From: an uncultured Myxococcales bacterium
Lineage (GTDB): Bacteria > Myxococcota_A > Polyangia > Palsa-1104 > JAEUJZ01
Assembly: GCA_937868485.1 (NCBI GenBank)
Contig: CALMML010000441.1
Location: 1 to 61,840, forward strand
Direction of reading: 5' to 3'
Length of the DNA: 61,840 bases
Below, piece after piece: positions 10,501 through 51,982 of the stretch (its first letter is position 1; every line of letters starts with the position of its first letter). The notes under the pieces are model-generated. The model made no database searches. It was not told the origin of the DNA and saw only the letters and a list, made by a program, of their open reading frames with translations. The position numbers and the translations under genes were made by a program.

Positions 10501-13086
10501 CGCCAGCGGCTTGGCCGACAGCTTCTGCTCGGCCAGCTCCGCGATCTTGTGCATGTGCTGGATCTTTTCCGCGTCGCTCTGCGCGTGTCCCAGCAGCACT
10601 TCGTACATCGCCAGCAGCCGAGGCCACTTCTCCGTCGCCTGATAAATCGGAAGCAGTGCCGTCGCTGCCGCCAGATGCTGCGGCTCAACAACCAGCACCC
10701 GCTCAAACGCTTTTTGCGCCTTGTCCTGGCTCGCCAGCTGCGACTTGGCCACCCGCGCCGATCGCAGATACAGGTCAATTCGCGTCGCTGACTGCTCCGC
10801 ACGCTCGGCCAGCGCCAGCAGCACTTCGTACAGCTCGTCCCACTGCGCCTGCTGACCGTACAGCCGCTCCAGCTCGTCGTACTGACCGGCCTGACCGTAC
10901 AGCTCGCGCAGCGTTCGCATCGCCTTCTGATGCGTCGGCTGAAGTCGCACGATCTCGCGATAGACATCCACCGCCGGAGCCGCCGCCAGCAGCTTTTCCG
11001 CCAGCAGCGTGCCGATCTTTTCGAGCAGCGCCACCTGCGTCTTCACATCTTTGCTGCGCGACTTCTGACGGAGCAGCACCTCGATGAGCGCCACAAAGCG
11101 CTTTTCTTTTTCGTACAGGCTCGCCAGCGCCGACAGCGCACCTTCGTCGTTTTCGTCGATCTCCAGCAGCCGGTTCCAGATCCCGATCGCTTCGATGCTG
11201 TCGCCCAGACGATCCTGCGCCAGCTTCGCCAGCTCCGTCAGACGCGTCCGACGCTCTTTGAGCCACGCCTCGCTGCTCGGCAGCCGCTCGGGATGCGCTT
11301 CCAGCACATCGAGCTGACGACGTTCCAGGTCCAGCAGCGACCGCCACGACCGACGCTTGTTGTAGATGTCGCGCAGCCGCGTCACCGTCTCTGCATCGTC
11401 GGGATCGATCGCGTACAGGTCTTCCAGCGGCTTGACCGCCTGGTTGTGGTTCGAAAACTTGTCGATCCACAGCTGCGCCACTCGCTTGAGCAGCCGCGCC
11501 TGTTCCGCCCGCGACTCCGGCGACTTCGCCAGCAGATCCGCCTTGCGCTGCAGCACGCCGATCAGGTCGTTCCAGCGCGCCATCGCCTCGTACTTCTGGC
11601 CCAGCGCGTCGAGCGCCCCCAGATGCTCCGGCTTGAGCGCCAAGATCGCCGTGTAGGTGTTGATCACCATCGCGTCGAGCTTCAGACGATCGCGATAGAT
11701 CGCCACCACTTCCAGCAACCGCTCGATCCGCTGATCAAGCTGCGCCGGATCGTCCTTCGACAGCGACTCCGCCTGCTCCTTGAGCATCTCCAGCAGCGCG
11801 TTCCACTTTTCCGTCCGCGTATACAGCCGCTTGAGCGCCGCGCCCGCCTCGCCATGACCCGGCGACAGCTTCAGCACCGACTTCCAGATGTCGATCGCTT
11901 TGTCGAGCCCGCCCGGCGACGACTCTGCCACCTGCGCCATCTCGATACCGAGCGCCAGCCGTCGGCCCGCGTCGTTTTCGACCTTCTGCGCCTGCGTCAG
12001 CACCGCCAGCAGCTTGCTCGAGTCATCCGCCGTCGGCTTGCCCGTGCCTTTGCCGTCGTAGTACGAGCGATAAAAGTCCAGCATCTCAGGCTGCGCCGGA
12101 TCGACCTTGCGCACCCGCTGGTAGTACTCGCTCGCCTGCTCGTAGTTCTTCAGCTTGTGGAAATACAGCCGACCGATCTCGAGCACCGTCGGAAGCTCGC
12201 TCTCGGTACGCTGACGGACCTTCAGCGCCTGCTCATACAGCTTGATGAGCGACGAAAAGTCCTGCTTTTCCGTGTACAGCGACACCAGCGCCGACAGCGC
12301 CCGTCCGTTCGCCGGATCGATCTGCAGCGCCTTCTTGTGCGAATCCACCGCCGCGTCGTGGTTCTTGAGCTGCTTGCCGTACAGATCGGCCAAGCTCAGC
12401 AGCGCCAGCACGCGATCTTCCTTCGTCGCTGCGCTCTCCGATCGCTGCTCCAGCGTCTTGATAAGCTCCGGCCACTTCTTCTGCGCCCGGAACAAACGCT
12501 CAAGGTGCAGCGACGCACGACGATTGCGCGGCTCGACCGACAGCGCCTTGTACCAGTAGCTCTCGGCGTCGCCCGTCTGAGCGCTGTACTTTCCGTAGTA
12601 CTCACCGATGCGCGTATACAGGTCGGTGGTCAGCTGTCGCTCCGTCGAGCGCTTGGCTTCATCAAGCCACTTCTGAACCACCTTCTGCCAGTTCCCCTTC
12701 ACCGCCGAGAGCTGCTCCAGCGCATCTTGCGCCGACTCGCTCTCTGCATCCGCCGCCAGCGCTGCTTGATACGCAGCTTCTGCCTGACTTTCCGACAAGA
12801 GCTCGTCGCAGCAAACCCGGCCCTTTTCAACCAGGAGCTCCGCTCGCTCACTGGCCACCGTCACCAGGCCGGAATCGAGGAGAACGTCACACAGAGCGAG
12901 CCACAGCTCTGCATCGCCGCGCTCGCGATAACGCTTCTGGGCCTCGCGCACCGCCGTCTTGGCCTGCGCTGCCGCTTCACTCGAAGACTGGGCCGCAACC
13001 TTCGCTACCGCCACAAGCCGCTCTCGGGCTTGAGCCTGCGTCGGGTCGCTATCCAAGGTCGCGAGTGCCTGCACGATATCTGTCAT
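1588..13086 (-). CDS. Giant TPR-repeat protein (about 3830 aa), AgmK/GltI-like in size and architecture
   Basis: Uninterrupted ORF made of helical repeats (A..AYR.VL..DP....AL.AL.RLY); no signal peptide; start placed at MTDIVQ, 35 nt below a sigma70-like promoter. Orthology to AgmK not established. Confidence 0.9.
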   Translation of the reverse strand: MTDIVQALATLDSDPTQAQARERLVAVAKVAAQSSSEAAAQAKTAVREAQKRYRERGDAELWLALCDVLLDSGLVTVASERAELLVEKGRVCCDELLSESQAEAAYQAALAADAESESAQDALEQLSAVKGNWQKVVQKWLDEAKRSTERQLTTDLYTRIGEYYGKYSAQTGDAESYWYKALSVEPRNRRASLHLERLFRAQKKWPELIKTLEQRSESAATKEDRVLALLSLADLYGKQLKNHDAAVDSHKKALQIDPANGRALSALVSLYTEKQDFSSLIKLYEQALKVRQRTESELPTVLEIGRLYFHKLKNYEQASEYYQRVRKVDPAQPEMLDFYRSYYDGKGTGKPTADDSSKLLAVLTQAQKVENDAGRRLALGIEMAQVAESSPGGLDKAIDIWKSVLKLSPGHGEAGAALKRLYTRTEKWNALLEMLKEQAESLSKDDPAQLDQRIERLLEVVAIYRDRLKLDAMVINTYTAILALKPEHLGALDALGQKYEAMARWNDLIGVLQRKADLLAKSPESRAEQARLLKRVAQLWIDKFSNHNQAVKPLEDLYAIDPDDAETVTRLRDIYNKRRSWRSLLDLERRQLDVLEAHPERLPSSEAWLKERRTRLTELAKLAQDRLGDSIEAIGIWNRLLEIDENDEGALSALASLYEKEKRFVALIEVLLRQKSRSKDVKTQVALLEKIGTLLAEKLLAAAPAVDVYREIVRLQPTHQKAMRTLRELYGQAGQYDELERLYGQQAQWDELYEVLLALAERAEQSATRIDLYLRSARVAKSQLASQDKAQKAFERVLVVEPQHLAAATALLPIYQATEKWPRLLAMYEVLLGHAQSDAEKIQHMHKIAELAEQKLSAKPLAFSWLSKAYALRESESLDSRPRQQLESELRRLAGEADTWNELVSIYARQVEKLDDGAHKLARLRLLGQWTQQKLHRLDEARGYWEQVLAKIPLDEEALTALEQIFQSQEKYPELLGIYRKRVESQADQSKRTDVLFRMASVEENKLSDRGAAAATYRRILAESASNASMATTMRALRALEKIYTQSGDSESLAEVLEAQLQHIAQSQSGSERSERDIETQIMISFQLGELYELHLDKPEKALERYRQVLQLTAGHRPTLVALERFLVPSNPVRVEVARLLVPAYERADDTRKLAAALEIVLSATVDAAEELELLRRLAGLVRKLGDVENAYKFAARLFERVPYDHDNRHELIELGETLERQEAVAELLEDAERAARRAGDNQLARDLAWDLGQLFGEQLHEIEKAEAAYIRVLESDESHEGAARALEEIYRAGERFPELRRLLERRKDLAVEPSDRKELLFQICDLDEGVLEDEEAASRDYAEILELDPSNTRAFKALERLHTAAERWRELDDLLARAVPHVDSVVDRAQLRFRRGELHAVRLDDPDGACELLEEALSEQPKHKGARRTLESLMDNYGLRQRIARTLEPLFEQDGDFAKLVAVLSVQREALPMERSPEAAALLSRIARITEEKLRKPDGALGAYREALRLDPADPQHRGNVERVATSLGRFEDLAAAWEEAFVATDSDNLALRGELLRRAAELYDHKLSDAERARDAWKRLLDLDPTSLDTARPAAVALARLYQQAEQWRDLIDVLRRQAEWSHGDERKSLLFRIGEIQQSLLDDSDAAIATYREILDGDAQEVRALDALESLHVAKEQWTDLIGILRRRVDLANDSQSRRDLLWRIAEVIEVKLGDRDEAITAYGVILSERAEDVPAIDALGRLYEAAEQHSNLLDMLERRLPLTLDVTDRVTLRLKMAGLLEGALRRNDAALEAYREVLIDDARSSIAREGLERMLDDDSLRLRAAEVLEPIYTLHGDLRALERLSELFATYLADVHERIVRLRKVAELRITLGDPRGALEALARAVRLAVAETELPELLDLVETHVDSHKAQRELVELYREVADQILDTRVQERVLLQIAKEAYALGERDVSRDYYRRVLDNVSDHLVALEALEKIYAEGRELESLLEIYARRASLAQREDRRDDGQRRQYLILAADLCERELARPSEAIALLEQVLALFPADAESATSLERLYKNSLRWADLADLLERRLKYAGSDSEVVDLRYRLGVLFEEELQSPDRAVENYRLALTVDAEHEPSIGALERFLDDADQRVTAAWVLKPIYESRGAWAKLIRTHEIHLYAADDTEKRIEFTKAIAALYEDKVSDLSQAFAWYGKVFVLQPGDGWTRDQLARLAGVLSSWQGLAELYQRYLDEQTADSEPATIDVLRTAAEIYDQRLAQVSKAQECYRRLLVVNTEDMAAFQPLEAMLLRAARWNDLYSVYRDAIRDTLDLDRKKSLLFKVSALQEERLEDPTAAIETFREILDLDSEDEQATLALDRLYTTLGRYQDLAELLIRRIERADRGGASELGKWSELKLRLAGLYEEKLDELPKAIDAYEEVLSKDEQSEPALSALERLLSSLPEREALRYRTARILDPIYRRQDAWQKLSQLLEVQLLFVEDKLRRVEILREIATIEESRGLAPQSAFQALSRAWLEEAGEGESREQPLFEELCRLAGLTSGFAQLVSILEKAVEGSYDFELVARVWARIARIYDEQLSDRSQAIDAWRKVTSVHDEDDSAWQNLERLLSAELRSSELVTVLEKRFTLVSDGKEQKRLLYAAADLHEKVLGAPEKAIATWRQVLSLDDHDGNALVALGRLYEGRDAWRDLTWVYGQQIEQADSDAVRRSLRFAMARVYEEKLGDSFEAMGAYKSALESNPSDTEALVALGRLYENESQWADHLEILDKLASLKESNDQVGERLSLWLQAARVTEEKIQESDAAIRRYEQILTFEPAGKRAQAAVLATQAEAKLALERLVQSPETRAQAAAVLEPLYRKHREWKPLIELLELSLSSAADPSERRRILSQIAELQENGRSDAASAFATWGRILSEDGSDEQAVQELERLARLGGEYGELAQIFEQRLETASDPQVQRVFALKLAGLYETHLSDETKAIERYRRVRELPGDEMEALAALDRLLLKNGALGELAEVLEREAEVADAPTEQAEFLYRLGELKTGSLYDLDGALQAFRKSLERHPQHTAARAAVERLINSPAHAVAALDLLEPLAEQERDFGKLVELLEVRVGVTQGKPERAALLERIANLAEKELSDSSRAFDAVARAFIEMPDDTRLTDEMERLARGCGRDSDAAFKLEEVLDRVTFGMKSSDSGRRMAAEMQRSLGLRAARIWERLSDDQRAETRYQTVLDLEGDNHEALAALERIYRQRGDSTLLAEMLLRRASLEETTASRKALLTEAAGLYQGPLADEFKAVEAWKKILELDETDGKALSSLAELYHRGRRFEELVSVLTAQSRLLSGNAKANILARIADLLSEELDQSAQAIEVYRELLQIQPNSLKALSALESLYARREDWTQVQEVLGRRFKAVPSTKDKIAVLRKLAQISLEKLQSVDDAVSHLQQVLELQPGDPDAQADLERLLEAGEKWYELVDVLVRHADASHKLNKLDEEISLLLRAAEIWEGKVQAPEQAKKLLERVLELDPNHVRALMSLARIYESQHDWARCKATLEKAVRLAKTSVEMAELYYRLGRMEAERQGDAAAEPYYERALQADPTNVEVAEALEKQARSRGDFRRVAALLEIRAERMQSLDVAKQKELLIELGRLYVNELKSPEGALPVLQRAYKLAPDDIQVVEPLAEIYYNAGRTKEALPLYKTLVERTAKGRRSKDLARIHFRLASIAEKEGELLKALEQYNAAYSIDAGHLPTLIALGRLYMHQSDWEKARRIYRSMLLQNLDPNSGVTRADVYLHLGEIHEKLGEGPKAVGMYERGLELDPNHAGLLLAMGRVRQS
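4816..5061. repeat. Exact 30-bp duplication inside the giant TPR gene
   Basis: TTCGTACAGCCGACCGAGTGCAACCAGCGC at 4816-4845 and 5032-5061 (216 bp apart), encoding ALVALGRLYE. Confidence 0.9.
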
Positions 13087-13127
13087 GGGTATGGGCCTTT
13101 TGCGTAGGTATCTTTTTGGACCGCACG

Positions 13128-13157
13128 ATTCTAACTCTTGCCGCGTCAATTAGACAA
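13128..13157 (-). promoter_or_regulatory. sigma70-like promoter of the giant TPR gene
   Basis: Minus strand TTGTCT(13157-13152)-18 nt-TAGAAT(13133-13128). Confidence 0.55.
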
Positions 13158-18681: not shown

Positions 18682-21222
18682 TTATACATGAACCTTCTCG
18701 CGATCTTTCCGCGCGCCGAAGTACAGCAGCAAAAGCCAGCCCAAACAGCCAAGCAGCGACAGCATCACACCCAGACGAAGCCCGCGATCGCGATAGTGCA
18801 GCTCGATGCGATGCGTTCCCGGTGACAGCGCCACGCCGCGCAGTGCCAGGTTGACCGGATAGAGCGGCTGAGGTTGTCCGTCGACGTGTACGCTCCAGTC
18901 GGGATGATAGGAATCGGCCAGCACCAGCACACCCGGCGCCAGCGCCTCGGCGGACAGGACGATGCGATGTCGGTGATACTCGACGATCTGCGCCGATGAG
19001 TGCGCGCGTCCCTGGTTTTCGACGATCGGCGGCTGCGTGCCCAGCGAAGGCTTGCTCGGCTGTCCGAGGATGATCTCTCGGTGCGGATCAAAGTCTGACT
19101 TGGCCACCAATACCGCTTCGTCGGCCTGCGTCTTGGCCAGCTTCGCCTGATACGCGACAAACGCGCGCGGCATCACCTTCGTGTTTTCAAACACCGATAG
19201 CTGCGAATCCCAGTACGCCTCGAAGCGAGCGCTCGGCGGCTGACCTGAATCGGGACGGAAACGCTGCATCCAGTGCGGCCCCGGCGACGTAGTTCCAATC
19301 AGATAGCGCACATTGAGCATGTCGACGATCGGCGAATCGAGCCGCCACAGCATCGCCGCCGCCAGGTCTTCTTTCAGTCGCTGATGCGGATAGACCGTGC
19401 CGTGGTTGAGGATGTACAGCAGGTGCGAATAGCGCCAGAGCTGAATCGAGCCATAGCCGCTCGCGCTGGGCCGACCGATGGTTTCTCCGACGGCGAGCAA
19501 GCGAAACGGTCCACGCGGATCCGACACAAAGCGATCGTAGAGCGGCGGCGAGTCTTTGGGCAGCTCCGCCGGAGTCTGCCGATCGAGCAGCCACTGTACC
19601 GCCGCAAAGCGCTCGGTTCCGTAGGCATAATCGATCGGCTGCGGATGCAGATAGCCTCGGTCGATGGGCAGCTGATCCGCGATCGTCACAAGCGACAGCA
19701 GCACAAGCGGCATCGCGCCCGTCAGCCCGCCAAGCAGACGCACCGCCAGCAGCGCTGCGACGAGCGTCACCGGCAGCGTCGCGTGTGCTTTGGCCAACAG
19801 CGCAAGCTGCTTCGCCAGCGGTGCCACCGTCGCCAGCTTCACAAGCTGTCCGCGATACAGCACGCCAGCGACGATGATCGCGACAACAGCCAGTCCACCG
19901 AGGAGCATCCGTCGCAGCGTCTGTTTGTGCGAGCCCGCGAGCAGCAGCTCGGCCCCAACGCTGCCCAGGATTGGCACCGTGATCACCAAAATCGACAGCG
20001 ATCGCGACGGACAGCGCAGCGCGGCATACAGCGGAAAGTAGCGAAACAGCAAAGGATGCAGCGGTCCACCGTCGCCGAGCGCAATCACCAGCGCCGCAAA
20101 CGACAGAAGAAGCAGCAGCGGTCGCTCCAGACCTTGGACGTGCGAGCGCACACCATCCGCGCCGGTTTCATCGCTGGATTCGACCGGTTTCCGTCGCCAC
20201 ACCGCCAGGATCGAACCCGGAATCGCCAGCATCAGCGCCGCGACGCCTTGGTAATAGCCCGCGATCTCCCAGTGATTCCACTTGCCGACCCACGGCTCGC
20301 CACGCCATTCCCCGCGACCGAACAGATCGGGCATCACCAGCGTCTGCCAGTACTTCCACGCCGGCCAGGCATACGTCGACGCGAAGTAATAGTCCGTCCC
20401 AAGCGCGCGTCCCGTCAGTGGCATCTGAAGCAGCGTCGGAAACAGCGCAATCGCCCCGAGCAGCGCTCCCACCGTCGCAGCCATCGCCAACGAGCCCGTC
20501 TGAATCAGCAAATACCGGAGCCTCTGTCCAGGCGGCCTTTGCCAGGCAAAGGTCAGCAGCCTTCCGACGGCATACACGATCACGGGAAACAGCAAAAAGT
20601 GCAGCAGCGAGTGCGCGCCCGCCAGCAGCAGCAGCCCCGAACACAGCGCCGCGGCGGCCAAGCTCTTGCGCTTTCCCGTCTGAAGAAAGTATTCGATCGA
20701 CCACAGCAGCCACGGCAGCCACGCCACCGCTTGCACGAAGATGATGTGACGGATTCGCACCACCTGAAACGACGACAGCGCAAACGCCAGTGCACCGAAC
20801 AGCGCAGCCGACCAGGACACACGCCGTCGCAGCAGCCACAGCATCCCGAGCCCACCGATCCACATGTGCAGCGCCGCCGACAGCCCGAGTCCCGCCGGTA
20901 CGCCAGCCGAAATTCCCGACGGAGGCTCTCCGCTTCGCTGACCAAAATAGAACACCGCGTTGGGCGGATAGAAGTAGCCGTAATACGGGTCCGCGACGAG
21001 CGGCCAGCCCGACATCGTTGTGTTTTCCCACGACGGCAGGGTTCGCTCGGTCAGCGCTCGCTTGAACGCCACACGCGCCGGATAGTAGTTATCCGCCGCG
21101 TCGTCCATGTGATAGATCGCGCCGCCGAAGAGAACCTCGCGATGCAGCACGCAGGTGCAGATCGTCAACAGCAGCACCGAAAACAGCAGGGTGTAAATCG
21201 CCGAAGGTCGCCGAGAGCTCAT
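18682..21222 (-). CDS. YfhO-family (GT-C) polytopic membrane glycosyltransferase
   Basis: LPSW....MSGWPLVADPYYGYFYPPN, many TM segments, C-terminal GVLVLADSYHPDWSVHVDG...PVNLALRGVALSPGTHRIELHY; start at MSSRRP chosen. Confidence 0.85.
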   Translation of the reverse strand: MSSRRPSAIYTLLFSVLLLTICTCVLHREVLFGGAIYHMDDAADNYYPARVAFKRALTERTLPSWENTTMSGWPLVADPYYGYFYPPNAVFYFGQRSGEPPSGISAGVPAGLGLSAALHMWIGGLGMLWLLRRRVSWSAALFGALAFALSSFQVVRIRHIIFVQAVAWLPWLLWSIEYFLQTGKRKSLAAAALCSGLLLLAGAHSLLHFLLFPVIVYAVGRLLTFAWQRPPGQRLRYLLIQTGSLAMAATVGALLGAIALFPTLLQMPLTGRALGTDYYFASTYAWPAWKYWQTLVMPDLFGRGEWRGEPWVGKWNHWEIAGYYQGVAALMLAIPGSILAVWRRKPVESSDETGADGVRSHVQGLERPLLLLLSFAALVIALGDGGPLHPLLFRYFPLYAALRCPSRSLSILVITVPILGSVGAELLLAGSHKQTLRRMLLGGLAVVAIIVAGVLYRGQLVKLATVAPLAKQLALLAKAHATLPVTLVAALLAVRLLGGLTGAMPLVLLSLVTIADQLPIDRGYLHPQPIDYAYGTERFAAVQWLLDRQTPAELPKDSPPLYDRFVSDPRGPFRLLAVGETIGRPSASGYGSIQLWRYSHLLYILNHGTVYPHQRLKEDLAAAMLWRLDSPIVDMLNVRYLIGTTSPGPHWMQRFRPDSGQPPSARFEAYWDSQLSVFENTKVMPRAFVAYQAKLAKTQADEAVLVAKSDFDPHREIILGQPSKPSLGTQPPIVENQGRAHSSAQIVEYHRHRIVLSAEALAPGVLVLADSYHPDWSVHVDGQPQPLYPVNLALRGVALSPGTHRIELHYRDRGLRLGVMLSLLGCLGWLLLLYFGARKDREKVHV

Positions 21223-21305
21223 AAGCGGTCGGCATCTTAGCGACAAATGGGACGGTTTTTTGTCGCTTGCATCACTTGCGCGGTCGCATGCATGCTCTGT
21301 CCCGC

Positions 21306-21791
21306 ATGGCCGACAAGTACCCAATGACCAAGAAGGGTCTTACGACGCTGAAGGACGAGCTCAAGCACCGCAAAGAGGTCGAGCGGTTCAAGATCGTAAG
21401 AGCCATTGAAGAAGCCCGCGCACACGGCGATCTGTCCGAAAATGCCGAGTACAGCGCGGCCAAGGAAGCCCAGTCACACAACGAAGGTCGCATCAGCAAG
21501 CTGGAAGAGCTTGTTGCTCTCGCTGATGTCATCGATCCTTCGACGCTGTCCGGTAACAAAGTGGTGTTTGGTGCAACAGTCACCGTCGAAGACACCGACT
21601 CTGGAGAGCGCCAAACCTTCGCGATCGTCGGGGAGCACGAGGGCGACATCAAGGCTGGCAAGATGAGCCTGACCTCGCCGCTCGCCCGGGCAATGATCGG
21701 TCACCGCGCCGGAGAAACCGTCCAAGTCAAGACGCCGCGCGGCAACCGTGAATACGAGATCGTGACCGTGAAGTTCCTCGCGATCGAATAG
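21306..21791 (+). CDS. greA: Transcription elongation factor GreA
   Basis: EARAHGDLSENAEYSAAKE, V.FGATVTVED, SLTSPLARAMIG. Confidence 0.97.
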   Translation: MADKYPMTKKGLTTLKDELKHRKEVERFKIVRAIEEARAHGDLSENAEYSAAKEAQSHNEGRISKLEELVALADVIDPSTLSGNKVVFGATVTVEDTDSGERQTFAIVGEHEGDIKAGKMSLTSPLARAMIGHRAGETVQVKTPRGNREYEIVTVKFLAIE

Positions 21792-21805
21792 CCGCAGCTG
21801 GCTAC

Positions 21806-21949
21806 ATGAATCCCTTACGCGCGCCGAAGTCCGTCGCCACAGCGCTCCTGGCCGATCTTGGAATGGGCCTGGGCATCGCGATCGTGATCGTGATCTTGCT
21901 GCTGTGTTCGGGCGCGGAAGATCAGGGCTTCATTTACGTTGACTTTTGA
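21806..21949 (+). CDS. DltX-like single-pass microprotein (47 aa), not in the ORF track
   Basis: MNPLRAPKSVATALLADLGMGLGIAIVIVILLLCSGAEDQGFIYVDF*; one TM helix and a C-terminal FIYxxF motif; starts 14 nt after the greA stop. Confidence 0.65.
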   Translation: MNPLRAPKSVATALLADLGMGLGIAIVIVILLLCSGAEDQGFIYVDF

Positions 21950-22006
21950 GCGACTTCTGGCACAAAAACAGCCTTCATTCTCGACGAGAACTAGTTAGGA
22001 GAGTCC

Positions 22007-23176
22007 ATGTCTAGCTTCATCTTTACCTCGGAGTCAGTCACCGAGGGACATCCCGACAAGCTGTGCGATCAGGTCTCTGATGCGGTGCTCGACGCGGCAC
22101 TGGCGCAAGACCGGACTTCGCGTGTTGCTTGTGAGACGCTGACCAAGACCGGCTTCGTGCTGCTCGCGGGTGAGATCACCACCAAAGCGGTCCTCGACTT
22201 TCCGACGATCGTCCGCAACACCGTCAAGGAGATCGGCTACTCCGACTCCGACATGGGCTTCGACTACAAGACCTGCGGCGTCATGGTTGCCGTCGAGCAG
22301 CAGTCACCTGACATCGCGCTCGGCGTCGATGGACACGGCGTCTACAATCCCGAAGAGCAAGGCGCTGGCGACCAAGGCATGATGTTCGGCTTCGCGTGCG
22401 ACGACACCGAAGAGCTGATGCCGATGCCGATCTCGCTGTCGCACAAGCTGTCGCGTCGTCTCGCGGCGGTTCGCAAAGATGGCACCCTGCCCTTCCTTCG
22501 TCCCGACGGAAAATCGCAGGTCTCGGTGCGCTACGAAAACAATCGTCCCGTCGCTGTTGAGACAGTGGTTGTGTCGAGCCAGCACTCGCCGGACGTTGCG
22601 CACAAGACGCTGACCGACGCGATCATCGAAGAAGTGGTGCGCAAGGAAATCCCGTCGCACCTGTTCGACAAAAACACGCGCTTTCTGATCAATCCGACCG
22701 GACGCTTCGTCGTCGGTGGTCCGATGGGCGACTCGGGTCTGACGGGTCGCAAGATCATCGTCGACACCTACGGCGGCTGGGGACGTCACGGCGGCGGCGC
22801 GTTTTCGGGCAAAGATCCGAGCAAGGTCGATCGCTCGGCTTGCTACTACGCGCGCTACATCGCCAAGAACATCGTCGCTGCGGGCCTGGCCAATCGCTGC
22901 GAAGTCCAGGTTGCCTACGCAATCGGCGTCGCGGCTCCGGTCAGCATCCACGTCACCACCTTCGGCACGGGCAAAGTCTCCGACGACTCGCTGGAAAAGC
23001 TGGTCCGCGCGCACTTCGACTGCCGTCCGGCGGCGCTGATCCGTGAGCTGGACCTGCTTCGTCCGATCTACAAGCCGACGGCTGCGTACGGTCACTTTGG
23101 CCGCACCGAGTCGACGTTCTCGTGGGAAAAGACCGACAAGGCTGCCGCGCTCAAGGAATCCGCCAAGTCCGTCTAG
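22007..23176 (+). CDS. metK: S-adenosylmethionine synthetase
   Basis: [58 protein letters not shown]; SD AGGAG. Confidence 0.99.
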
Positions 23177-23243: not shown

Positions 23244-23951
23244 TCACTTTTGCGCAATTCCGCGCAGCAGCACATCCATCAGCTCCCGAAAGCTCGGATC
23301 TTTTTCCGTCGGTAGCGCCATCATTCCCGACGCCCAGCCGAGCAGCCGCATAAAGTGACACGCGAACACGCTGCTCGCTGCCGTCTGAAGCGGCAGATCG
23401 GCGCGTACATCACCGCGAGCCTGACCGTCGCGAAGCAGCGCCGAAAGCCGTGACATAAACGCAAAAGTGAGCGCGTTCACTCGATCTGCATTCGGACCCC
23501 GCGCGCCCGGCAGCGTGGCAATGAACGCCATCGCCAGCGCCGGTGGCTGCTCTGCGTACATTCGATACAGCACACAGAACAGGTGGATCAGCTGATCGAT
23601 GAGCGGAGCCTTCGTCGGCAGCGTCGCAAAGGCTCGGTCCGTCGCATCCGCCAAGCGATCGTGCATCACCAAAAACAGCAGATCGACCTTGTCGGTGGCG
23701 TACAGAAACAGCGTGCCACTCGCCACGCCCGCCCGCGTCGCCACCTGCCGCGTCGTCGTGCTGTCAAAGCCTTGGCTGATGAACAGCTCCCAAGCCGCTT
23801 GACGAATGCGATCGCGCTTTTCCAGCTTGTTGCGCTCTCGTCGGCTGCGCTCTTCGGGATCCGCATCCTGCGCGACCTGCGCTGGGCTGACGACACGCTT
23901 GCGATGACCCGACTGCGAGCGTGTACTGTTGGACTTGTTGTTCTTGGTCAT
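23244..23951 (-). CDS. TetR/AcrR-family transcriptional regulator
   Basis: RIRQAAWELFISQGFDSTTTRQVATRAGVASGTLFLYATDKVDLL HTH; start at MTKNN chosen. Confidence 0.93.
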   Translation of the reverse strand: MTKNNKSNSTRSQSGHRKRVVSPAQVAQDADPEERSRRERNKLEKRDRIRQAAWELFISQGFDSTTTRQVATRAGVASGTLFLYATDKVDLLFLVMHDRLADATDRAFATLPTKAPLIDQLIHLFCVLYRMYAEQPPALAMAFIATLPGARGPNADRVNALTFAFMSRLSALLRDGQARGDVRADLPLQTAASSVFACHFMRLLGWASGMMALPTEKDPSFRELMDVLLRGIAQK

Positions 23952-24022
23952 TTTTGTGCGGAGTGTGGGCTGCTTCTTCTGAAGCTGTAGCGACTCATTT
24001 GACAGGATGCAAGCTTCGCGGT

Positions 24023-24046
24023 AAAAAATGAGCATGCTCATTTTTT
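24023..24046. promoter_or_regulatory. Perfect 24-bp palindrome, probable TetR operator
   Basis: AAAAAATGAGCATGCTCATTTTTT between the divergent TetR and Coq4-motif genes. Confidence 0.8.
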
Positions 24047-24069
24047 GAGTTACCAAGGAGAGAGCAGCC

Positions 24070-24690
24070 ATGACCGTGATTCACTACGACCCTTCACTGA
24101 CGATGCGCGAGGCTCGGGCCGAATACTTCGCCGCCAATCACTTCGGCGCGGACGGTGGCTATAACGATCCGTGGGTGGACTTCAAGATCGGGCCGGTGCC
24201 GCTGCCGTTTCCCAACAGTGCGTCGAGGGTGCGCGCGCTGCGCTTCCACGACATGCACCACATCCTGACCGGCTACGACACCACGTTCATCGGAGAGCTG
24301 GAGATCGGCGCGTGGGAGCTGGCCGCTGGCTGTCACAACGAGCCGTTCGCTTGGTTTATCAACCTGTCGGCGATGGGCGCGTTTTTGGCGTCGCCGCGTC
24401 GGATCTTTCGCGCCTTTGTCCGCGGCCTGCGCAGTCAGTCGCTGTACGGTCAAGATGCCGAGTCGCTCTTGTCGATGCAGGTTCGCGACGTGCGGACCAA
24501 GCTCAGCGTGCCGAGCGGCGAAGTCACGTCTGTGAAAATAAGTGAGCTTGCTCAGTTTTGCATCGCAGTCGGCGTGGGCTTTGTGGTCGGTCTGGCTGCG
24601 CTCGCGGTCTTTCTGCCGCTTTCACCGATCGGCATCGTGGTGCTGAACCTGCGTCGTCGGGCGGCCAGCAAGGACGCGCTCGCTACCTAG
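24070..24690 (+). CDS. Coq4-like metal-binding membrane protein
   Basis: HDMHH-ILTGYDTTFIG-E equals HDxxH-x11-E; C-terminal TM helices; SD AAGGAG. Confidence 0.7.
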   Translation: MTVIHYDPSLTMREARAEYFAANHFGADGGYNDPWVDFKIGPVPLPFPNSASRVRALRFHDMHHILTGYDTTFIGELEIGAWELAAGCHNEPFAWFINLSAMGAFLASPRRIFRAFVRGLRSQSLYGQDAESLLSMQVRDVRTKLSVPSGEVTSVKISELAQFCIAVGVGFVVGLAALAVFLPLSPIGIVVLNLRRRAASKDALAT

Positions 24691-29854: not shown

Positions 29855-30125
29855 GACAGGTCATCTCTCGCTTGTGCTTCGACTGAAGGTTGGCCCACAC
29901 GAAACGCTCGGCAGTGTAGGCAAGACCACAGTGCCAGCGCAAGGAATCGGACGTAGCCCAAGCAGCATGCCGCGAGACAGCGCGCAGGAAAAGCGCAAAG
30001 AAGCACCGCCGGTTGCGTCGGTTTTGCGGCAAGTCCTGATGGAAAAAGGACTTTGTGGGCTACGAAAAAAATCCATGGTACGGTAATCGGGCGGCAGTCC
30101 TGACCCTGCCGACAGAGTGTGGTCA

Positions 30126-33100
30126 ATGGCAGAACGAAAAGATCCGCCCGCAACCCAAAGTCCCGACGCTGAGGCGCTGCTTGCTCGCGCCAAGTCCCAG
30201 CGTGGCGTGGAAGCCGCCGAGACGCTACGTCGCGCAGCGGAAAAGTTCCGTGCGCAAGGCGATGTGGAACAAGCGTTTACTTCCTATGAACGAGCGCTGG
30301 CTGAGCTGGCGGATCAGATTGGATCTCCGCCGGCAGCCAAGCTGGGTGCGTCGCTGGAGTTCGAGCTGGGCAAGCTGTGCGAAGAAGACTTGGGCCGGTT
30401 TGAGCAAGCGCTGCTGCACTATCAGCAGGCGTTCAAGCTGCGACCCGACTTCATGGAGCCGCTGCGTCGCGGGCGCGTCATCTATCAGTCGCTCGGCGAC
30501 ATGGACATGGTGGCGCGGCTGATTGAGCTGCATCTGGCGAATCTCGTCGCGGGGGAAGCCCAGCAAGGCGTGGAGCTGGCGCTGGAGCTTGGGCACCTGA
30601 AGCTGCGACTGCATGATCCGGCGGGAGCCGTCGATGTGCTGCGTAGCGCGCTGCGGATGCACAACGAGCTGAGCGAAGACACGGAAGTTCCCGAGCAGCT
30701 CCTATCGACGCTGGCTGAGTCGTATATGTCGCCCGACTATCAGCCGGGCATCAGCGAAAAAGAGCAGGCTCGTCGCAACGCGAGTGACATCTTTTTGGGC
30801 TTGGCGAAGCGGCATCTCGACGAAGAGCTGCTGCAAATCCTGGAAAAGCTGCGGCAAGCGGAAGAAGAAGAGGGAAATTCTTCGCCGCTGTCCGTCGAAA
30901 ACTTGCTCAAGAGCAAGGACAAGCCGCTCGCGGAGCAAGACAAGCTGGCGCTGGGCTTTTTGAAGCGGGCGCTGGAAGCGGACATTCGCAATGTGACGGC
31001 GGCGGTGCTGGTCGAAGCGCTGTATCTGCGGACGCCAGCAGCGACGGGACTTCCTGAGCTGATCAAGCTGTATCGCAGCGGTGCGCGGGTGACTCGTCGG
31101 GGTCCGAAGCTGCTGAAGCTGTACGAACAGACGGGAAGTCCAGACTATCAAGCGGTGGCGGATGCGTGCCGAGCGGGTCTCGACGCGGTCAGCTCGATGG
31201 ATGAGTGGCACGAGACGCGGCAAGTGCTGGTCGATGTGCTGAAAAAAGCGAGCGATCAGCTGGGACTCGGTCAGCTTCGGGAAGAAGACGCGCTGGAAGC
31301 GGCGCTGCCCGAGGAGCGCGCCGAGCTGATGATGGAAGCCGCCGACTATTACAACCGAGGCGGTGACACCGAGCGATATATCGCGTGCCTCAAGCAAGCG
31401 TTTCACGAGCTGCCGCTGCACAGCGAAGCGTTTCGGAAGCTGTCGGACTACTACAAGAGCCGTCGCGACTTCATCGGGCTGGCGGTGATTCAAGAAAACC
31501 GCATGGCGGCGCAGTTTGAGACGGCGCGGCTCGATCTGCAAAGCTATGCCAAGCAGCTCGAAGACCTGGGTGAGCTGTACGAAAAGAAGCTGCAAGACGT
31601 GGTGTCGGCGGCGGCGATTTGGCGACGGATTGATGAGCTACTTCCGTCGCTGCGTTCGCAGAGTGAGCGCAAGCGTCTCGGGCAGCGTCTGACGCGAACG
31701 GAGATGCAGATCAACGAGCTGATCGTCGAGCTGGAGCGAATGGAGCCCGACGATGTAACGCGCGTGGAATATCTGCGACGGCTGGCGCAGCTGTATCGAG
31801 AGATCCACGAGCCGAAGCATGCAGCGACGGTGCTCGATCAGCTGTTGCAGCTTGCGCCGGGTGACTTGCCGTCGATCAAAGTGCTGATCGAGCTGGCCGA
31901 GCAGAGCGGTGACACGTCGCAGCAGCTAGAGCTTTTGCGACAGCAAGCGGGTCTGGCGAGTGACAAAGCCGAGCGACTGGGCATCTTGCGACGGATGATG
32001 ACGCTGTGCGATCAGCGACTTCTGCGACGGGATGAGCAGTTCGACGGGCAAGACAGCATCGAGATGATGGTGTGGGTGTGTCGCAGCCTGCTCACGGAGC
32101 TGCCGTCGGATCGTGACGCGCTCAAGCGGCTGGCGGATGCGCTTCAGCTCGTCGGAAGCAAGAACGAGCTGCTCGAAGTGCTGGAGTCGTATCTGCGGGT
32201 TGCGCCGACGCCGCGCGAGAAGCTGACGCTGCATCGTCGGATTGCCAAGATCGCGGAAGACTGTGGGGATCTGACGCGATCGGTGTCACACCTGGAACGC
32301 GCGGTGCGCATCTGTCCGCCCGGTCCCGAGGCGGAAGAAGTGCTGTGCGAGCTGGCGCGGGTCTATGGCGCGCAAGGTCGGCTGGAGCTGGCGGTTTCGA
32401 CGCTGGATCTGGTGCAAAAGCAGAGCAGTCGGAGCGGTCCCGAGATTCATCGGCTGCTCGGACGGCTGACGCTGCAAGCGGATGATCCGCAGCTTCTCGA
32501 CAAGAGCTTGCGGGCGTTTCGGGAAGTGCTGGCGCGTCTGCCGCAAGACGGGGAAGCGCTGGCGGCGCTGCAAAAGATTCATCGGACGCGCGGCGAGTGG
32601 AAAGAGCTGGAGCAGGTTCTCCGCAAGCAGCTCGAGCCGATGGAGCCGCCGCTGCCACCGAGAGAGCGTCTGTCGTTGGCGCTCGATCTGGCGGAAGTGC
32701 TCGGGCAGCACATGGAAAATCCGCGTCAGGCGGCAGCGCTGCTGGAAAAAGTGCAGGCCGAGACGCCGATCGTCGATCTGCGGGTTCACCGTCACTTGCG
32801 CGGTCTGTACGAAGAGCTGGGCGACGTGCGTGCGGCGGTGTCGTGTGAAGAACGCGAGCTGCTGCTGACGGAAGATCCGGTGGCTCGGATCGAGCGAGCG
32901 ATTGAGATTGCTCGTCTGTGGCAGTCGCGCGGAAAAGACGCGGGTCGCGCCTATCTGTCGTATGAGCGTGCGGTGCGGATGGCGCCAGAGCTTCCACCGG
33001 ACAGCGTCGAAAGAGCGGCGGTTCGTCGTCTGATCACGCAGGCGCTGGAAGCGATGAGCCAGATGTCGGCGCAGCGCGGACGCTGGGACGACGTGGTGGG

Positions 33101-48463: not shown

Positions 48464-48824
48464 GGTCCCTCTTGAGGCTCAAAGGGCTGAAAACGGATGT
48501 TCGGGCCGCGCTGGCGGCGCCGGGCACAAGCAGCGTCACCTTGGGCTAGCCTGGCCAAAAAGCAATCGGCGGGCAGTCTAGCGAAAGGGCTCACGGTCGT
48601 CACTAATCTTGCGTCATCTTTTGCCACGAATCATCCGCTTTTGCGCACCGAGGACGAACCAGCATATGGCGCGCTCAGCTCTGTGGTTTTAGCGTTCGAT
48701 GCCACCGCTGCGATCGCTGCGGCCAGCCATTCGATTACCACAGAATTGTTCTATGTAATGACGCGCCGCGCCAAGTAGTCGCTCGTGACCGCCGCTGGGC
48801 TTGCGAAAGCGCCGCACATGCACG

Positions 48825-51158
48825 ATGTTTGCCCGACCGATGTCGAGCCTTGAACCTTCCCCGCCGTCCACGCTGTCGCCTCCGACTTCGCAGCCCAACT
48901 GGCTGTCTGCTCTGTCGCGACCCGGTCCCGCGCTGCTGCTGGTGCTGCTCTTTTCGACGCTGCTGCTGATTCCCGGTCTGAGCAGCTTCGGTCTGTGGGA
49001 TCCGCATGAGGTGCGGCTTCTCGAAGGTGCGAGCGAGCCGATTCCCGCTGCGGAGCTGTGGAAGCCGTCGAGCGCGGTCAGGCCCAGGCTGCCGCTTCTA
49101 CCGATCAAGCTGGGTCTTGCGTGGTTTGGCCCAGGAGAGCTGGGTGCGCGGCTGCCGATTGCGATGCTGGCCGTGCTGCTGCTGTCGACGCTGGTGCTGC
49201 ACGGATCGATGCATCGACGGGTTCGCGCGTCGCTGCTGTCCGCGCTGGTGCTGGCGACGACGCCCATGCTGTTTCTGTCCGGTCGCCAAGCGAGCCTAAA
49301 CCTGCTGCCGATGCTCGCGCAGCTTCTGTCGGTGACGGGACTGTTTGCGCTGTGCTGGCCTCGGCCAGATCGGAAAGCGATCGATGTGCCGGTCGGTGTG
49401 CTGCTGTCGATCTGCGGGCTGGGACTCGGGCTTCTGACGACAGGAAGCCTGATCGGGCTGGTGGTTCCGGCGCTGGCCTTGGCCGCTTCGCTGTTTCTGG
49501 CGCGTGGTCCCGTCGCGGGAGAGCTTCTTTCGTCGCTGATTGCGGGCTTTGGCCTGATCATGCCGGTTCGTCAGCTGCTGGTTGTCGCGCAGGTAAAGCC
49601 GTCGCTGGTGCTGATCGGTGCGGGCTGTTTGCTCGTCGTGGGACTCTGCGGAGCGCTGCTGAGCCGTCGTCCGCTGTGGCTGCTTCTATCGCTGCTCGGG
49701 GTCGGACTGTTTCCAGCGCTGCCGTCGAGCATCAATGGCTATTCGGGCCATCTCGCCGGGGTTCCACACTGGCCAGCGCATCGAGAGTTTCAGGCGGACT
49801 CGCTGCTCAAGACGATCGGCTTTGTGATGTTCCCGTGGGTGGCGCTCGTGCCGGTCGCGATCGCGCAGATTTTTTCAGATCCCGCGACGGAAAGCGCGTC
49901 TGAACCAGCGTCGAGCGATCCAGAAACTGAGCGTGCTCAGGTTCATTCCTTGGTCCTTGTGGCGTGGCCGGCCGTCGGGTATCTGCTGCACACGCTTCAG
50001 TCGGCGCTGGTCCAAGACGCACCGTTTGCCAGCCTGCCTGCGCTGGCACTTGTCGTCGGTGGCTACATGGATCGAGTGCTGGATGGTAAAAAGCCGTCGC
50101 TGGCTGCGCTGCTCAGCACCGGGCTGTTTGCGCTGTTCGTCGCACGCGACTTCTTCTTCGGTCCCGAGCAGTATCTGTCGGCTCAGCTCACCGAGACGCT
50201 GCGCTGGCCAGCCGTCCAGCCGGGCACCGATCAGCTGATTGGTCACGGCGGACAAATTCTGAGCACGCTCGGAATTGCGGTGGCGGCGCTGTTTGCCCTG
50301 GGGCTGTATCTGGGCCGATTGAAGTCGCTGATCCTGCCCGGTGCGGCGCTGGCGATGGCGCTGTTTACGATGCACGGGCTGGTTCCGGCGGTGACGCGGC
50401 ATGTGTCGTATCGCGGCATCTACACCAAGTACGAAAAGCTCGGCGGTGGAGAGCTGGGTCTATACGGACTTCAGCGCTCGTCGGCGCGTATCTACGGACA
50501 GCACAGCGTCGAAATTCCGTCGCTCGAAGAGCTGTTTCAGTTCCTGAACAAGACGCCGGGCAAGCGCACCTTTGCGATCGTCGGAGCGAGCGAAGTGGCC
50601 GCGCTCGATGTTCACTCGTTTCAAAAGAACCTGCCGTACTACGTCGTCGACGATAGCAACAGCCAGTTTCTGCTTCTGTCGAACCAGCTGGGACCGGGCG
50701 AAAAGGATCTCAACCCGCTGCGTCGCTTTGTCACGACGGAGCCACCGAAGCCGCAGACGGAAACGCACATCTCGTTTGACGATCGCGTCGAGCTGATTGG
50801 CTACGACATCCCGACGGAAGTGCAGCGCGGCAGCGAGTTCGTGATTCGTCTGTACTTCAAGGTGCTCCAGCCGCTCGGTGGCAACTATCGGGTGTTTCTG
50901 CACTTCGACGGAACCGGCGCGCGCATCAACGGCGATCACATCCCGCTCGGTGGCAAGTACCCGACCAACTACTGGACCAAAGGACAGTACATCACCGACG
51001 AGCATCGCATGAGCACCTCGCGCCTAAACCAAAGCGCCGGGTATTATCAGGTGTTTACTGGGATGTGGCCGGGCGGCGACGGGACACGACTGCGAGTCAC
51101 CCAAGGACCGCACGAGCCGGACAACCGAGTCCGCCTATCGGCGATCAGGGTCAAGTGA
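48825..51158 (+). CDS. GT-C (ArnT/PMT, GT39-like) membrane glycosyltransferase with a C-terminal beta-sandwich domain
   Basis: GLWDPHE near the N-terminus, G..ELGARLP, many TM segments, C-terminal DRVELIGYD...GDHIPLGGKYPT..W.KG..I.DEH; start uncertain (48801-48840). Confidence 0.8.
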   Translation: MFARPMSSLEPSPPSTLSPPTSQPNWLSALSRPGPALLLVLLFSTLLLIPGLSSFGLWDPHEVRLLEGASEPIPAAELWKPSSAVRPRLPLLPIKLGLAWFGPGELGARLPIAMLAVLLLSTLVLHGSMHRRVRASLLSALVLATTPMLFLSGRQASLNLLPMLAQLLSVTGLFALCWPRPDRKAIDVPVGVLLSICGLGLGLLTTGSLIGLVVPALALAASLFLARGPVAGELLSSLIAGFGLIMPVRQLLVVAQVKPSLVLIGAGCLLVVGLCGALLSRRPLWLLLSLLGVGLFPALPSSINGYSGHLAGVPHWPAHREFQADSLLKTIGFVMFPWVALVPVAIAQIFSDPATESASEPASSDPETERAQVHSLVLVAWPAVGYLLHTLQSALVQDAPFASLPALALVVGGYMDRVLDGKKPSLAALLSTGLFALFVARDFFFGPEQYLSAQLTETLRWPAVQPGTDQLIGHGGQILSTLGIAVAALFALGLYLGRLKSLILPGAALAMALFTMHGLVPAVTRHVSYRGIYTKYEKLGGGELGLYGLQRSSARIYGQHSVEIPSLEELFQFLNKTPGKRTFAIVGASEVAALDVHSFQKNLPYYVVDDSNSQFLLLSNQLGPGEKDLNPLRRFVTTEPPKPQTETHISFDDRVELIGYDIPTEVQRGSEFVIRLYFKVLQPLGGNYRVFLHFDGTGARINGDHIPLGGKYPTNYWTKGQYITDEHRMSTSRLNQSAGYYQVFTGMWPGGDGTRLRVTQGPHEPDNRVRLSAIRVK

Positions 51159-51982
51159 TGCAGGTTCAGTCGCTGGCAGAGATCGAGCTTCGAGACGCAA
51201 TCCAACCGCTCAACCGCAGCGCACCGTCGAACTTTGGACCGGCGCTGCGCACGCCAGCGCTCATCCGCGAGCTGGTCGCACTGGGTGTCGTCGATGCGTC
51301 GCTGTCGAAGGTGCTCGTGCTTTCGGGCAAGGTGCTAGGCGGCTGTCTGGTCGAGCGGGTGCCCGGTGGTGGTCTTCTGTCGGCGCTGAGCATCGAGCCG
51401 CTGGCGCAGCAGCGTGGTGGTGGACGAGCGCTCCTCGAAGAAGTGATCAAAGCGGCGCGGACCGCCCAGCTTGCGCAGCTTCGGATCGAGGTGAGCGAAG
51501 GCGACACAGCGCATGAGTCCCTGATCGGTGCGCTGCACTTTGTGCGCGTCGAGACCCTACATCGGCTGGCGCTACAGAAAGCACCGAATCGATCGCTGTT
51601 TCCGACGGAAGAGTTCGATCTTGTGACGGAAGTTTCGATCGAAGAAGCGATCTCGCTGCTGTCGGCGCAGACCACTTGGCAGCCCGCACCGTCGGCCCAG
51701 CCGGACATGGTTCGGAAGCTGACGAAGCGACTGAGCGCGCTCACTTTGGTCCAATCGGATCGGCGCGCGACGCTGATCTTCGACAAAGAGCGAAAGCTGA
51801 TCTGGACGCTCGGCGGAGACCCGACGCGGATGGCGCAGCTTGCGGTCTGTGTGGCTGCCAAGCATGGCGCGGCGTTTGTGGACTCGCTGCGCGACGAAGA
51901 TCCGGCGATCTCCGCGCTTGTCGAGGCGGGCTTCACCAAGCTGGCCGTGCGCGCAGCCCATCAGTTGACGCTCGAAGGCTAG
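51158..51982 (+). CDS. GNAT-family acetyltransferase
   Basis: LSIEPLAQQRGGGRALLEEV acetyl-CoA motif A; ATG overlaps the upstream TGA. Confidence 0.75.
   Translation: MQVQSLAEIELRDAIQPLNRSAPSNFGPALRTPALIRELVALGVVDASLSKVLVLSGKVLGGCLVERVPGGGLLSALSIEPLAQQRGGGRALLEEVIKAARTAQLAQLRIEVSEGDTAHESLIGALHFVRVETLHRLALQKAPNRSLFPTEEFDLVTEVSIEEAISLLSAQTTWQPAPSAQPDMVRKLTKRLSALTLVQSDRRATLIFDKERKLIWTLGGDPTRMAQLAVCVAAKHGAAFVDSLRDEDPAISALVEAGFTKLAVRAAHQLTLEG

Follow-up and report, generated by a model that had tools for sequence, protein, structure and literature searches.

A 47-codon gene lying between greA and metK in DNA from the Polyangia encodes a conserved single-pass microprotein whose C-terminal hexapeptide matches the FXYXXF motif of bacterial acyl shuttles. 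The gene, here called X, was analyzed within a stretch of 61,840 nucleotides (the window). In the published systems, the FXYXXF acyl shuttle forms the external C terminus of DltX and the C terminus of PatA and other bacterial MBOATs, and its tyrosine ferries an acyl group from the MBOAT to an SGNH transferase (PMC12148441; PMC13653941). A 2025 study of PatAB states that a DltX-like microprotein is lacking in non-Dlt pathways, where the motif is on the MBOAT itself (PMC12148441). Our full-text literature search turned up no earlier account of an orphan microprotein resembling DltX. We tentatively favor, at a little under even chances, the reading that X is a DltX-type acyl-tyrosine shuttle that would work in trans, with its enzyme encoded elsewhere.

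Table 1. Coordinates of X, its parts, its neighbors and two further ORFs of the window
Feature	Position	Strand	Description and basis
YfhO-family membrane protein gene	18682..21324	-	Pfam; divergent from greA
greA	21267..21791	+	Maximal ORF; probable start, 21288 or 21306; Pfam GreA_GreB_N and GreA_GreB
Microprotein gene X	21806..21949	+	47 aa plus stop, ATG start; encodes MNPLRAPKSVATALLADLGMGLGIAIVIVILLLCSGAEDQGFIYVDF
N-terminal segment of X, residues 1-9	21806..21832	+	Variable; predicted cytoplasmic; alignment, charge counts
TM helix of X, residues 10-37	21833..21916	+	Hydrophobic core ~14-32; AlphaFold2, conserved columns, hydropathy
Acidic tail of X, residues 38-47	21917..21946	+	EDQGFIYVDF; AlphaFold2 coil; predicted periplasmic
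C-terminal hexapeptide of X	21929..21946	+	F42-I43-Y44-V45-D46-F47; matches the FXYXXF acyl-shuttle motif
X-metK spacer	21950..22006	+	58 nt; strong Shine-Dalgarno sequence AGGAGAG; possible metK promoter or leader
metK	22007..23176	+	Pfam, three S-AdoMet synthetase domains
785-aa ORF	48801..51158	+	~13 predicted TM segments, soluble C-terminal domain
305-aa ORF following the 785-aa ORF	51065..51982	+	Weak GNAT acetyltransferase matches, E ~0.0015

A microprotein gene in the greA-metK interval

X starts 14 nt past the greA stop codon and ends 58 nt ahead of metK, and its translation is exactly that implied by the sequence-only reading that had singled out the ORF. The GC contents at its first, second and third codon positions (0.60, 0.40 and 0.73) follow the same pattern as those of the neighboring genes. 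No recognizable Shine-Dalgarno sequence precedes its ATG. Short ORFs are plentiful in this DNA of 62% GC, where they number in the dozens. Because an ORF of 47 codons is within chance at this composition, the case for X was built on comparative evidence.

A word-indexed search retrieved four close relatives, two of which are only 61 to 63% identical to X and share an identical C-terminal GAEDQGFIYVDF. When 1.84 billion representative proteins were searched exhaustively with an HMM, 16 clusters came back at E of ≤0.001, every one of them of small proteins, and a 20-member profile returned 62 clusters. All but one of the latter are proteins of 29 to 129 amino acids that end in FIYVDF (44 clusters) or FIYIDF (17 clusters). 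The exception (P0062, from a 712-kb ENA contig) is a gene call of 155 residues that fuses the end of X (...LLLFAGTEDQGFIYVDF) to the N terminus of MetK, reflecting loss of the X stop codon, a frameshift or an assembly error on that contig. The matches of the exhaustive search included no long protein and no MBOAT with an X-like C terminus. At all loci X was a separate ORF with start and stop codons of its own, unlike the MBOAT-fused form of the shuttle.

Six alignment columns are invariant in the family (G21, F42, I43, Y44, D46 and F47), and seven are nearly so (A25, L32, L33, G36, E38, D39 and G41). Relative to the window sequence, dN/dS over the whole ORF ranged from 0.13 to 0.58, with dS from 0.56 to saturation; over the last nine codons of X, pS was 0.46 versus a pN of 0.063. 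The motif codons of distant loci vary between TTT and TTC, ATT and ATC, TAC and TAT, and among GTT, GTC, ATC and ATT, and these synonymous changes argue for constraint on the peptide rather than on the DNA. Start, frame and stop were retained in 27 loci, indels being in frame, and the TM helix has diverged in sequence among relatives while keeping its hydrophobicity. Judged by these comparisons, X is a genuine conserved protein-coding gene.

The sequence-only reading had named conservation of the ORF and of its terminal motif as a check on its proposal; both held, in that all 61 clusters end in FIY[VI]DF. Its view of X as a real single-pass microprotein is likewise borne out by these homologous clusters, the dN/dS values and the predicted helix described below. 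The description of the ORF as hidden applies only in part, as several gene callers already annotate it in public data under the label "hypothetical protein."

The named sources of X are metagenome-assembled genomes (MAGs) labeled Polyangia, Myxococcales or Deltaproteobacteria, in which the protein is described only as hypothetical. A scan of one genome per species over 185,579 species yielded 11 X loci, in MAGs labeled Myxococcales or Polyangia apart from two labeled Pseudomonadota, and a metagenome scan added 6 further loci. By its occurrence in these searches, in which all 61 clusters came from MAGs or metagenomes of Myxococcota/Polyangia, the family is confined to a single uncultured lineage of the Polyangia.

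In 27 of the 27 loci examined, greA lies directly upstream of X, usually at a distance of 8 to 32 nt and at most 147 nt (L007). Downstream, metK follows X after 55 to 230 nt in all loci with enough DNA save one (L010), where X is followed by a gene in the opposite orientation yet keeps its DRGFIYVDF end. Scans of positions 21000 to 22200 revealed no sigma-70 promoter and no intrinsic terminator, and thus none among greA, X and metK. greA and X are probably cotranscribed, and the three genes form an apparent transcription unit; the place of X in such a unit, with no terminator-like site, only suggests the constitutive expression proposed in the sequence-only reading. The simplest view of the strict greA-X(-metK) linkage is that X is carried in a housekeeping transcription unit.

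As a neighbor of X, the divergently oriented YfhO gene occurs solely in the clade nearest to the window. Its place upstream is taken by a gene for a Ser/Thr kinase of ~1,000 aa in L007 and L018, a radical-SAM gene in L010 and a methyltransferase gene in L019. The earlier suggestion that YfhO is a functional associate of X was rejected on synteny, since YfhO is missing from the distant loci.

Architecture of X and its resemblance to DltX

With the family alignment as input, AlphaFold2 predicted a single helix of residues 10 to 37 (pLDDT 90 to 97) followed by a 10-residue coil tail; together with the ORF translation, this confirmed the single TM helix and FIYVDF-ending tail that had been read from the sequence at the outset. 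The invariant G21 and the nearly invariant A25 are four residues apart and form a GxxxA (small-xxx-small) helix face, a feature that is typically a mark of helix-helix packing. An LLL-x-x-G pattern occupies the predicted periplasmic end of the helix. In relatives, the segment N-terminal of the helix is free in both length (~5 to 95 residues) and sequence, with means of 2.6 K+R and 2.1 D+E, while the family tails comprise 10 to 15 residues with means of 2.7 D+E and 0.85 K+R. From this charge bias, X is predicted to be a single-pass inner-membrane protein with its N terminus in and its C terminus out.

The unconstrained N terminus argues against direct dealings of X with the GreA or MetK protein and suggests that function resides in the helix and the predicted periplasmic tail. 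Taken with the conserved tail, it places the function of X, by prediction, outside the cytoplasm. The pattern of conserved columns indicates that selection acts on the TM helix with its GxxxA face and on the acidic tail.

In architecture and motif, the likeness of X to DltX is strong. Both are proteins of ~45 to 50 aa (47 aa for X) with one TM helix and a tail of 10 to 15 residues, external in DltX and predicted to be so in X. DltX of Bacillus thuringiensis has 48 aa, of which 11 are cytoplasmic, 22 are in the TM segment and 15 are external, and ends in FIYNEF (PMC5541007), as does DltX of Lactiplantibacillus plantarum (PMC13653941). The C-terminal F-I-Y-x-(D/E)-F is thus common to DltX (FIYNEF) and X (FIYVDF), and in both an aromatic residue and a glycine mark the outer end of the helix (LLWLYG in DltX; LLLLFAG in X, where this end is predicted to be the outer one). 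The two differ in that DltX is encoded in a dltXABCD operon, whereas X lies between greA and metK with no DltA, DltB, DltC or DltD gene nearby. Moreover, the host of X is a diderm myxobacterium without teichoic acids, and the tail is rich in Thr and Asn in DltX but acidic (EDxG) in X.

A second likeness is to the shuttle hexapeptide of PatA and other MBOATs, in which the same FXYXXF stands at the extreme C terminus after a TM helix in the periplasm of Gram-negative bacteria; in Neisseria gonorrhoeae PatA the sequence is FIYANF (PMC12148441). In those enzymes, two additional TM helices join the hexapeptide to the MBOAT, whereas X is a free 47-aa protein. Acylation of the PatA tyrosine has been assayed by [14C]acyl-CoA labeling with a Tyr-to-Phe control (PMC12148441), and the presence of the shuttle hexapeptide in MBOAT-SGNH pathways other than PatA is a published inference.

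We examined the relatedness of X to DltX with profile methods. The X protein of the window had no Pfam match at E of ≤10 and no NCBIfam match. Thirteen of 20 family members matched the Pfam DltX family, PF12459, with 13 to 16 bits (best E, 0.0042), every score being below the gathering threshold of 25 bits, and PF12459 was the only Pfam family matched by more than one of the 20. NCBIfam gave isolated noise matches only with these 20 members. The PF12459 alignments placed profile positions 18 to 43 of 43 in register with the C terminus of the X family; the positive control, B. thuringiensis DltX, scored 75.7 bits (2e-21). Scrambling the hexapeptide, replacing Y by F, shuffling the TM residues or making the TM segment polar each abolished the match, which tolerated a two-residue C-terminal extension. 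These losses indicate that the resemblance extends beyond the motif to the end of the helix.

BLASTP produced no alignment between X and B. thuringiensis DltX. When hhalign was run against a narrow alignment of DltX from the B. cereus group, the final 14 columns came out in register (P = 0.007; probability, 5%). In a PDB sequence search, the X profile returned TM noise only and the DltX profile no entry. The data are suggestive of homology between X and DltX, at scores below threshold. The initial label "DltX-like" is supported by the FXYXXF end, the architecture and the recurrent in-register PF12459 match, and is weakened by scores under 25 bits, the lack of a match for the window protein itself and the empty BLASTP result.

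Possible roles of X

As the most likely mechanism, we propose that of a DltX-type shuttle working in trans. The helix of X would dock on a polytopic acyltransferase, of the MBOAT type or similar, that has no C-terminal shuttle of its own. Tyr44, the candidate acyl acceptor by analogy with DltX and PatA, would lie at the mouth of the enzyme funnel and take up the acyl group there, forming an O-acyl-tyrosine ester. The tail, being flexible, would then swing over to a periplasmic SGNH-type transferase, which would place the acyl group on an envelope polymer. The shuttle gene would be unlinked from those of its enzymes and carried in the housekeeping greA-X-metK unit. We infer acyl carriage by X, and the existence and identity of such partners, from the likeness to the known shuttles.

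Neither in the scanned ORFs of the 61.8-kb window nor within 10-kb flanks at the other X loci did a search for partner enzymes reveal an MBOAT, SGNH, DltD, AT3, D-alanyl carrier or adenylation gene. The absence of an MBOAT nearby, remarked upon in the sequence-only reading, was thus confirmed over these regions; the accompanying proposal that X serves distant MBOAT systems is purely conjectural. The only polytopic products of window ORFs are YfhO, ATP synthase subunit a, MscS and one unassigned 785-aa protein. Considered as a possible hidden acyltransferase, the last was rejected: it had no Pfam match, its PDB matches were insignificant (E ≥ 0.12), and on visual inspection it resembles a glycosyltransferase of the GT-C type. 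The ORF that follows it is listed with its weak matches in Table 1.

Several observations weigh against a shuttle role. The statistics of the DltX comparison are below threshold, no partner gene is present in cis, and X has no recognizable Shine-Dalgarno sequence. To our knowledge, all characterized systems either encode the shuttle within the operon or carry it as a fusion to the MBOAT. In addition, the linkage to greA and metK is without obvious envelope logic.

A bolder version, which we regard as possible but doubtful, would make X the first acyl-tyrosine shuttle outside the Dlt pathway to stand free and act in trans. The C-terminal shuttle of an MBOAT would have split off in a diderm lineage, its gene being kept in the greA-X-metK operon far from the enzymes, and it might serve more than one acyltransferase/SGNH pair. 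For the Polyangia, this would be a hitherto undescribed arrangement of envelope acylation. If X is a shuttle, this would depart from the published model in which a separate shuttle microprotein occurs in the Dlt pathway only (PMC12148441). The acyl shuttle could then be regarded as a portable module, and a TM helix followed by a C-terminal FIYxDF would provide a sequence handle for tracking down further shuttles concealed in small ORFs that lack annotation. Such a shuttle would also suggest that the Polyangia, which are abundant in activated sludge and soils, acylate an envelope polymer not yet recognized. Even without a shuttle role, X represents a family of microproteins that is strongly conserved, is modeled by neither Pfam nor NCBIfam, and has its gene between two core genes.

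The alternative that survives best, although we consider it rather unlikely, is that the periplasmic tail of this small membrane protein has a role unrelated to acyl carriage and that its likeness to FXYXXF is convergent. The tail could offer a PDZ-domain protein or another periplasmic protein a tethered C-terminal ligand, or X could belong to a membrane complex as an accessory subunit. I-Y-V-D-F alternates hydrophobic residues and ends in Phe in a predicted periplasmic location, and an aromatic-x-F carboxy terminus is akin to the beta-signal of outer membrane proteins and to the YxF peptides that activate DegS. The GxxxA face suggests docking on some membrane partner, which would suit this role as well, and it is further favored by a DltX homology that is statistically below security and by the absence of an acyltransferase gene from every X neighborhood examined. 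Against it, invariance extends to the Ile and to each of the four positions that define the shuttle motif, and not merely to the last three residues, and the PF12459 match needs both the Tyr and the TM residue order. PDZ ligands, moreover, are usually variable at positions -4 to -6.

Far less probable is a cis-acting role, with X as a leader or arrest peptide that controls metK in the manner of TnaC, SecM and MifM. Those are small ORFs upstream of a regulated gene that encode a conserved C-terminal peptide, as in X, and SecM and MifM share with X an N-terminal hydrophobic segment. The near-constant presence of metK 55 to 230 nt downstream would fit such a leader. So would the DNA-level conservation seen in the close clade, where the last ~45 nt of X with its stop codon (21905-21949) and the 58-nt spacer are almost invariant, and the retention of the rare A/T-ending codons ATT, GTT and TTT despite a GC3-rich genome. 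However, X is conserved with an intact motif in L010, which has no metK downstream, and in distant loci the spacer sequence is unrelated and the motif codons differ by synonymous changes. A leader has no need of a conserved TM helix with a GxxxA face, and the helix of X ends ~10 residues before the stop, too close for force sensing. An exact FXYXXF match in an arrest motif would have to be a coincidence.

No RNA switch is evident either. Rfam searches of positions 21200 to 22200 (E ≤ 10) returned nothing but a chance sRNA match within greA, and thus no riboswitch. RNAalifold on the 3' end of X and the metK spacer gave no compensatory pairs, so that an RNA element as the cause of the DNA-level conservation is not supported. 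Finally, the idea that X is no gene, but a chance ORF in a conserved noncoding greA-metK spacer, draws on the abundance of short ORFs in GC-rich DNA and the missing Shine-Dalgarno sequence and is effectively refuted by the comparative data, namely, start, frame and stop kept in 27 loci with in-frame indels, a helix that has diverged yet stayed hydrophobic, dN/dS of 0.13 to 0.58 at dS up to saturation, and GC3 periodicity as in real genes.

Spacer, promoter region and remaining genes of the window

The X-metK spacer may be a promoter, operator or leader of metK. It holds TGGCACAAAAAC, reminiscent of the -24 element of sigma-54 promoters, and a CTCGACGAG palindrome. Reading TGGCAC-N5-nnGC as a sigma-54 promoter was rejected as unproven, since L001 and L003 do not retain the -12 GC.

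Taken at their maximal length, the ORFs of YfhO and greA share a head-to-head overlap of 58 nt. Gene calls for homologues are shorter, at 854 aa for YfhO in L008 (639 aa in L009, where it is apparently truncated) and 161 to 167 aa for GreA. The true starts of both genes are therefore expected inside these ORFs, and the divergent promoter region between them would be very short.

Between metK and the ACT/DUF711 pair, positions 23244 to 24690 of the window carry a gene for a TetR-family regulator on the minus strand and a divergent one for a 206-aa protein with a weak Coq4 match. This gene pair is present also in L011 to L013 and in L022 and L023, is absent from L008 and L009, and was negative by tblastn in L024, a distribution that points to a clade-specific indel. 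The block conserved across the close clade comprises genes for a giant TPR protein, an M90 peptidase, YceG, RuvX, a methyltransferase, YfhO, greA, X, metK, ACT, DUF711 and an FHA-kinase. Two giant ORFs, at 1588 to 13149 on the minus strand (3,853 aa) and 30117 to 38357 on the plus strand (2,746 aa), flank the region in the window; their counterparts in L008 and L009 gave faint or weak TPR matches only.
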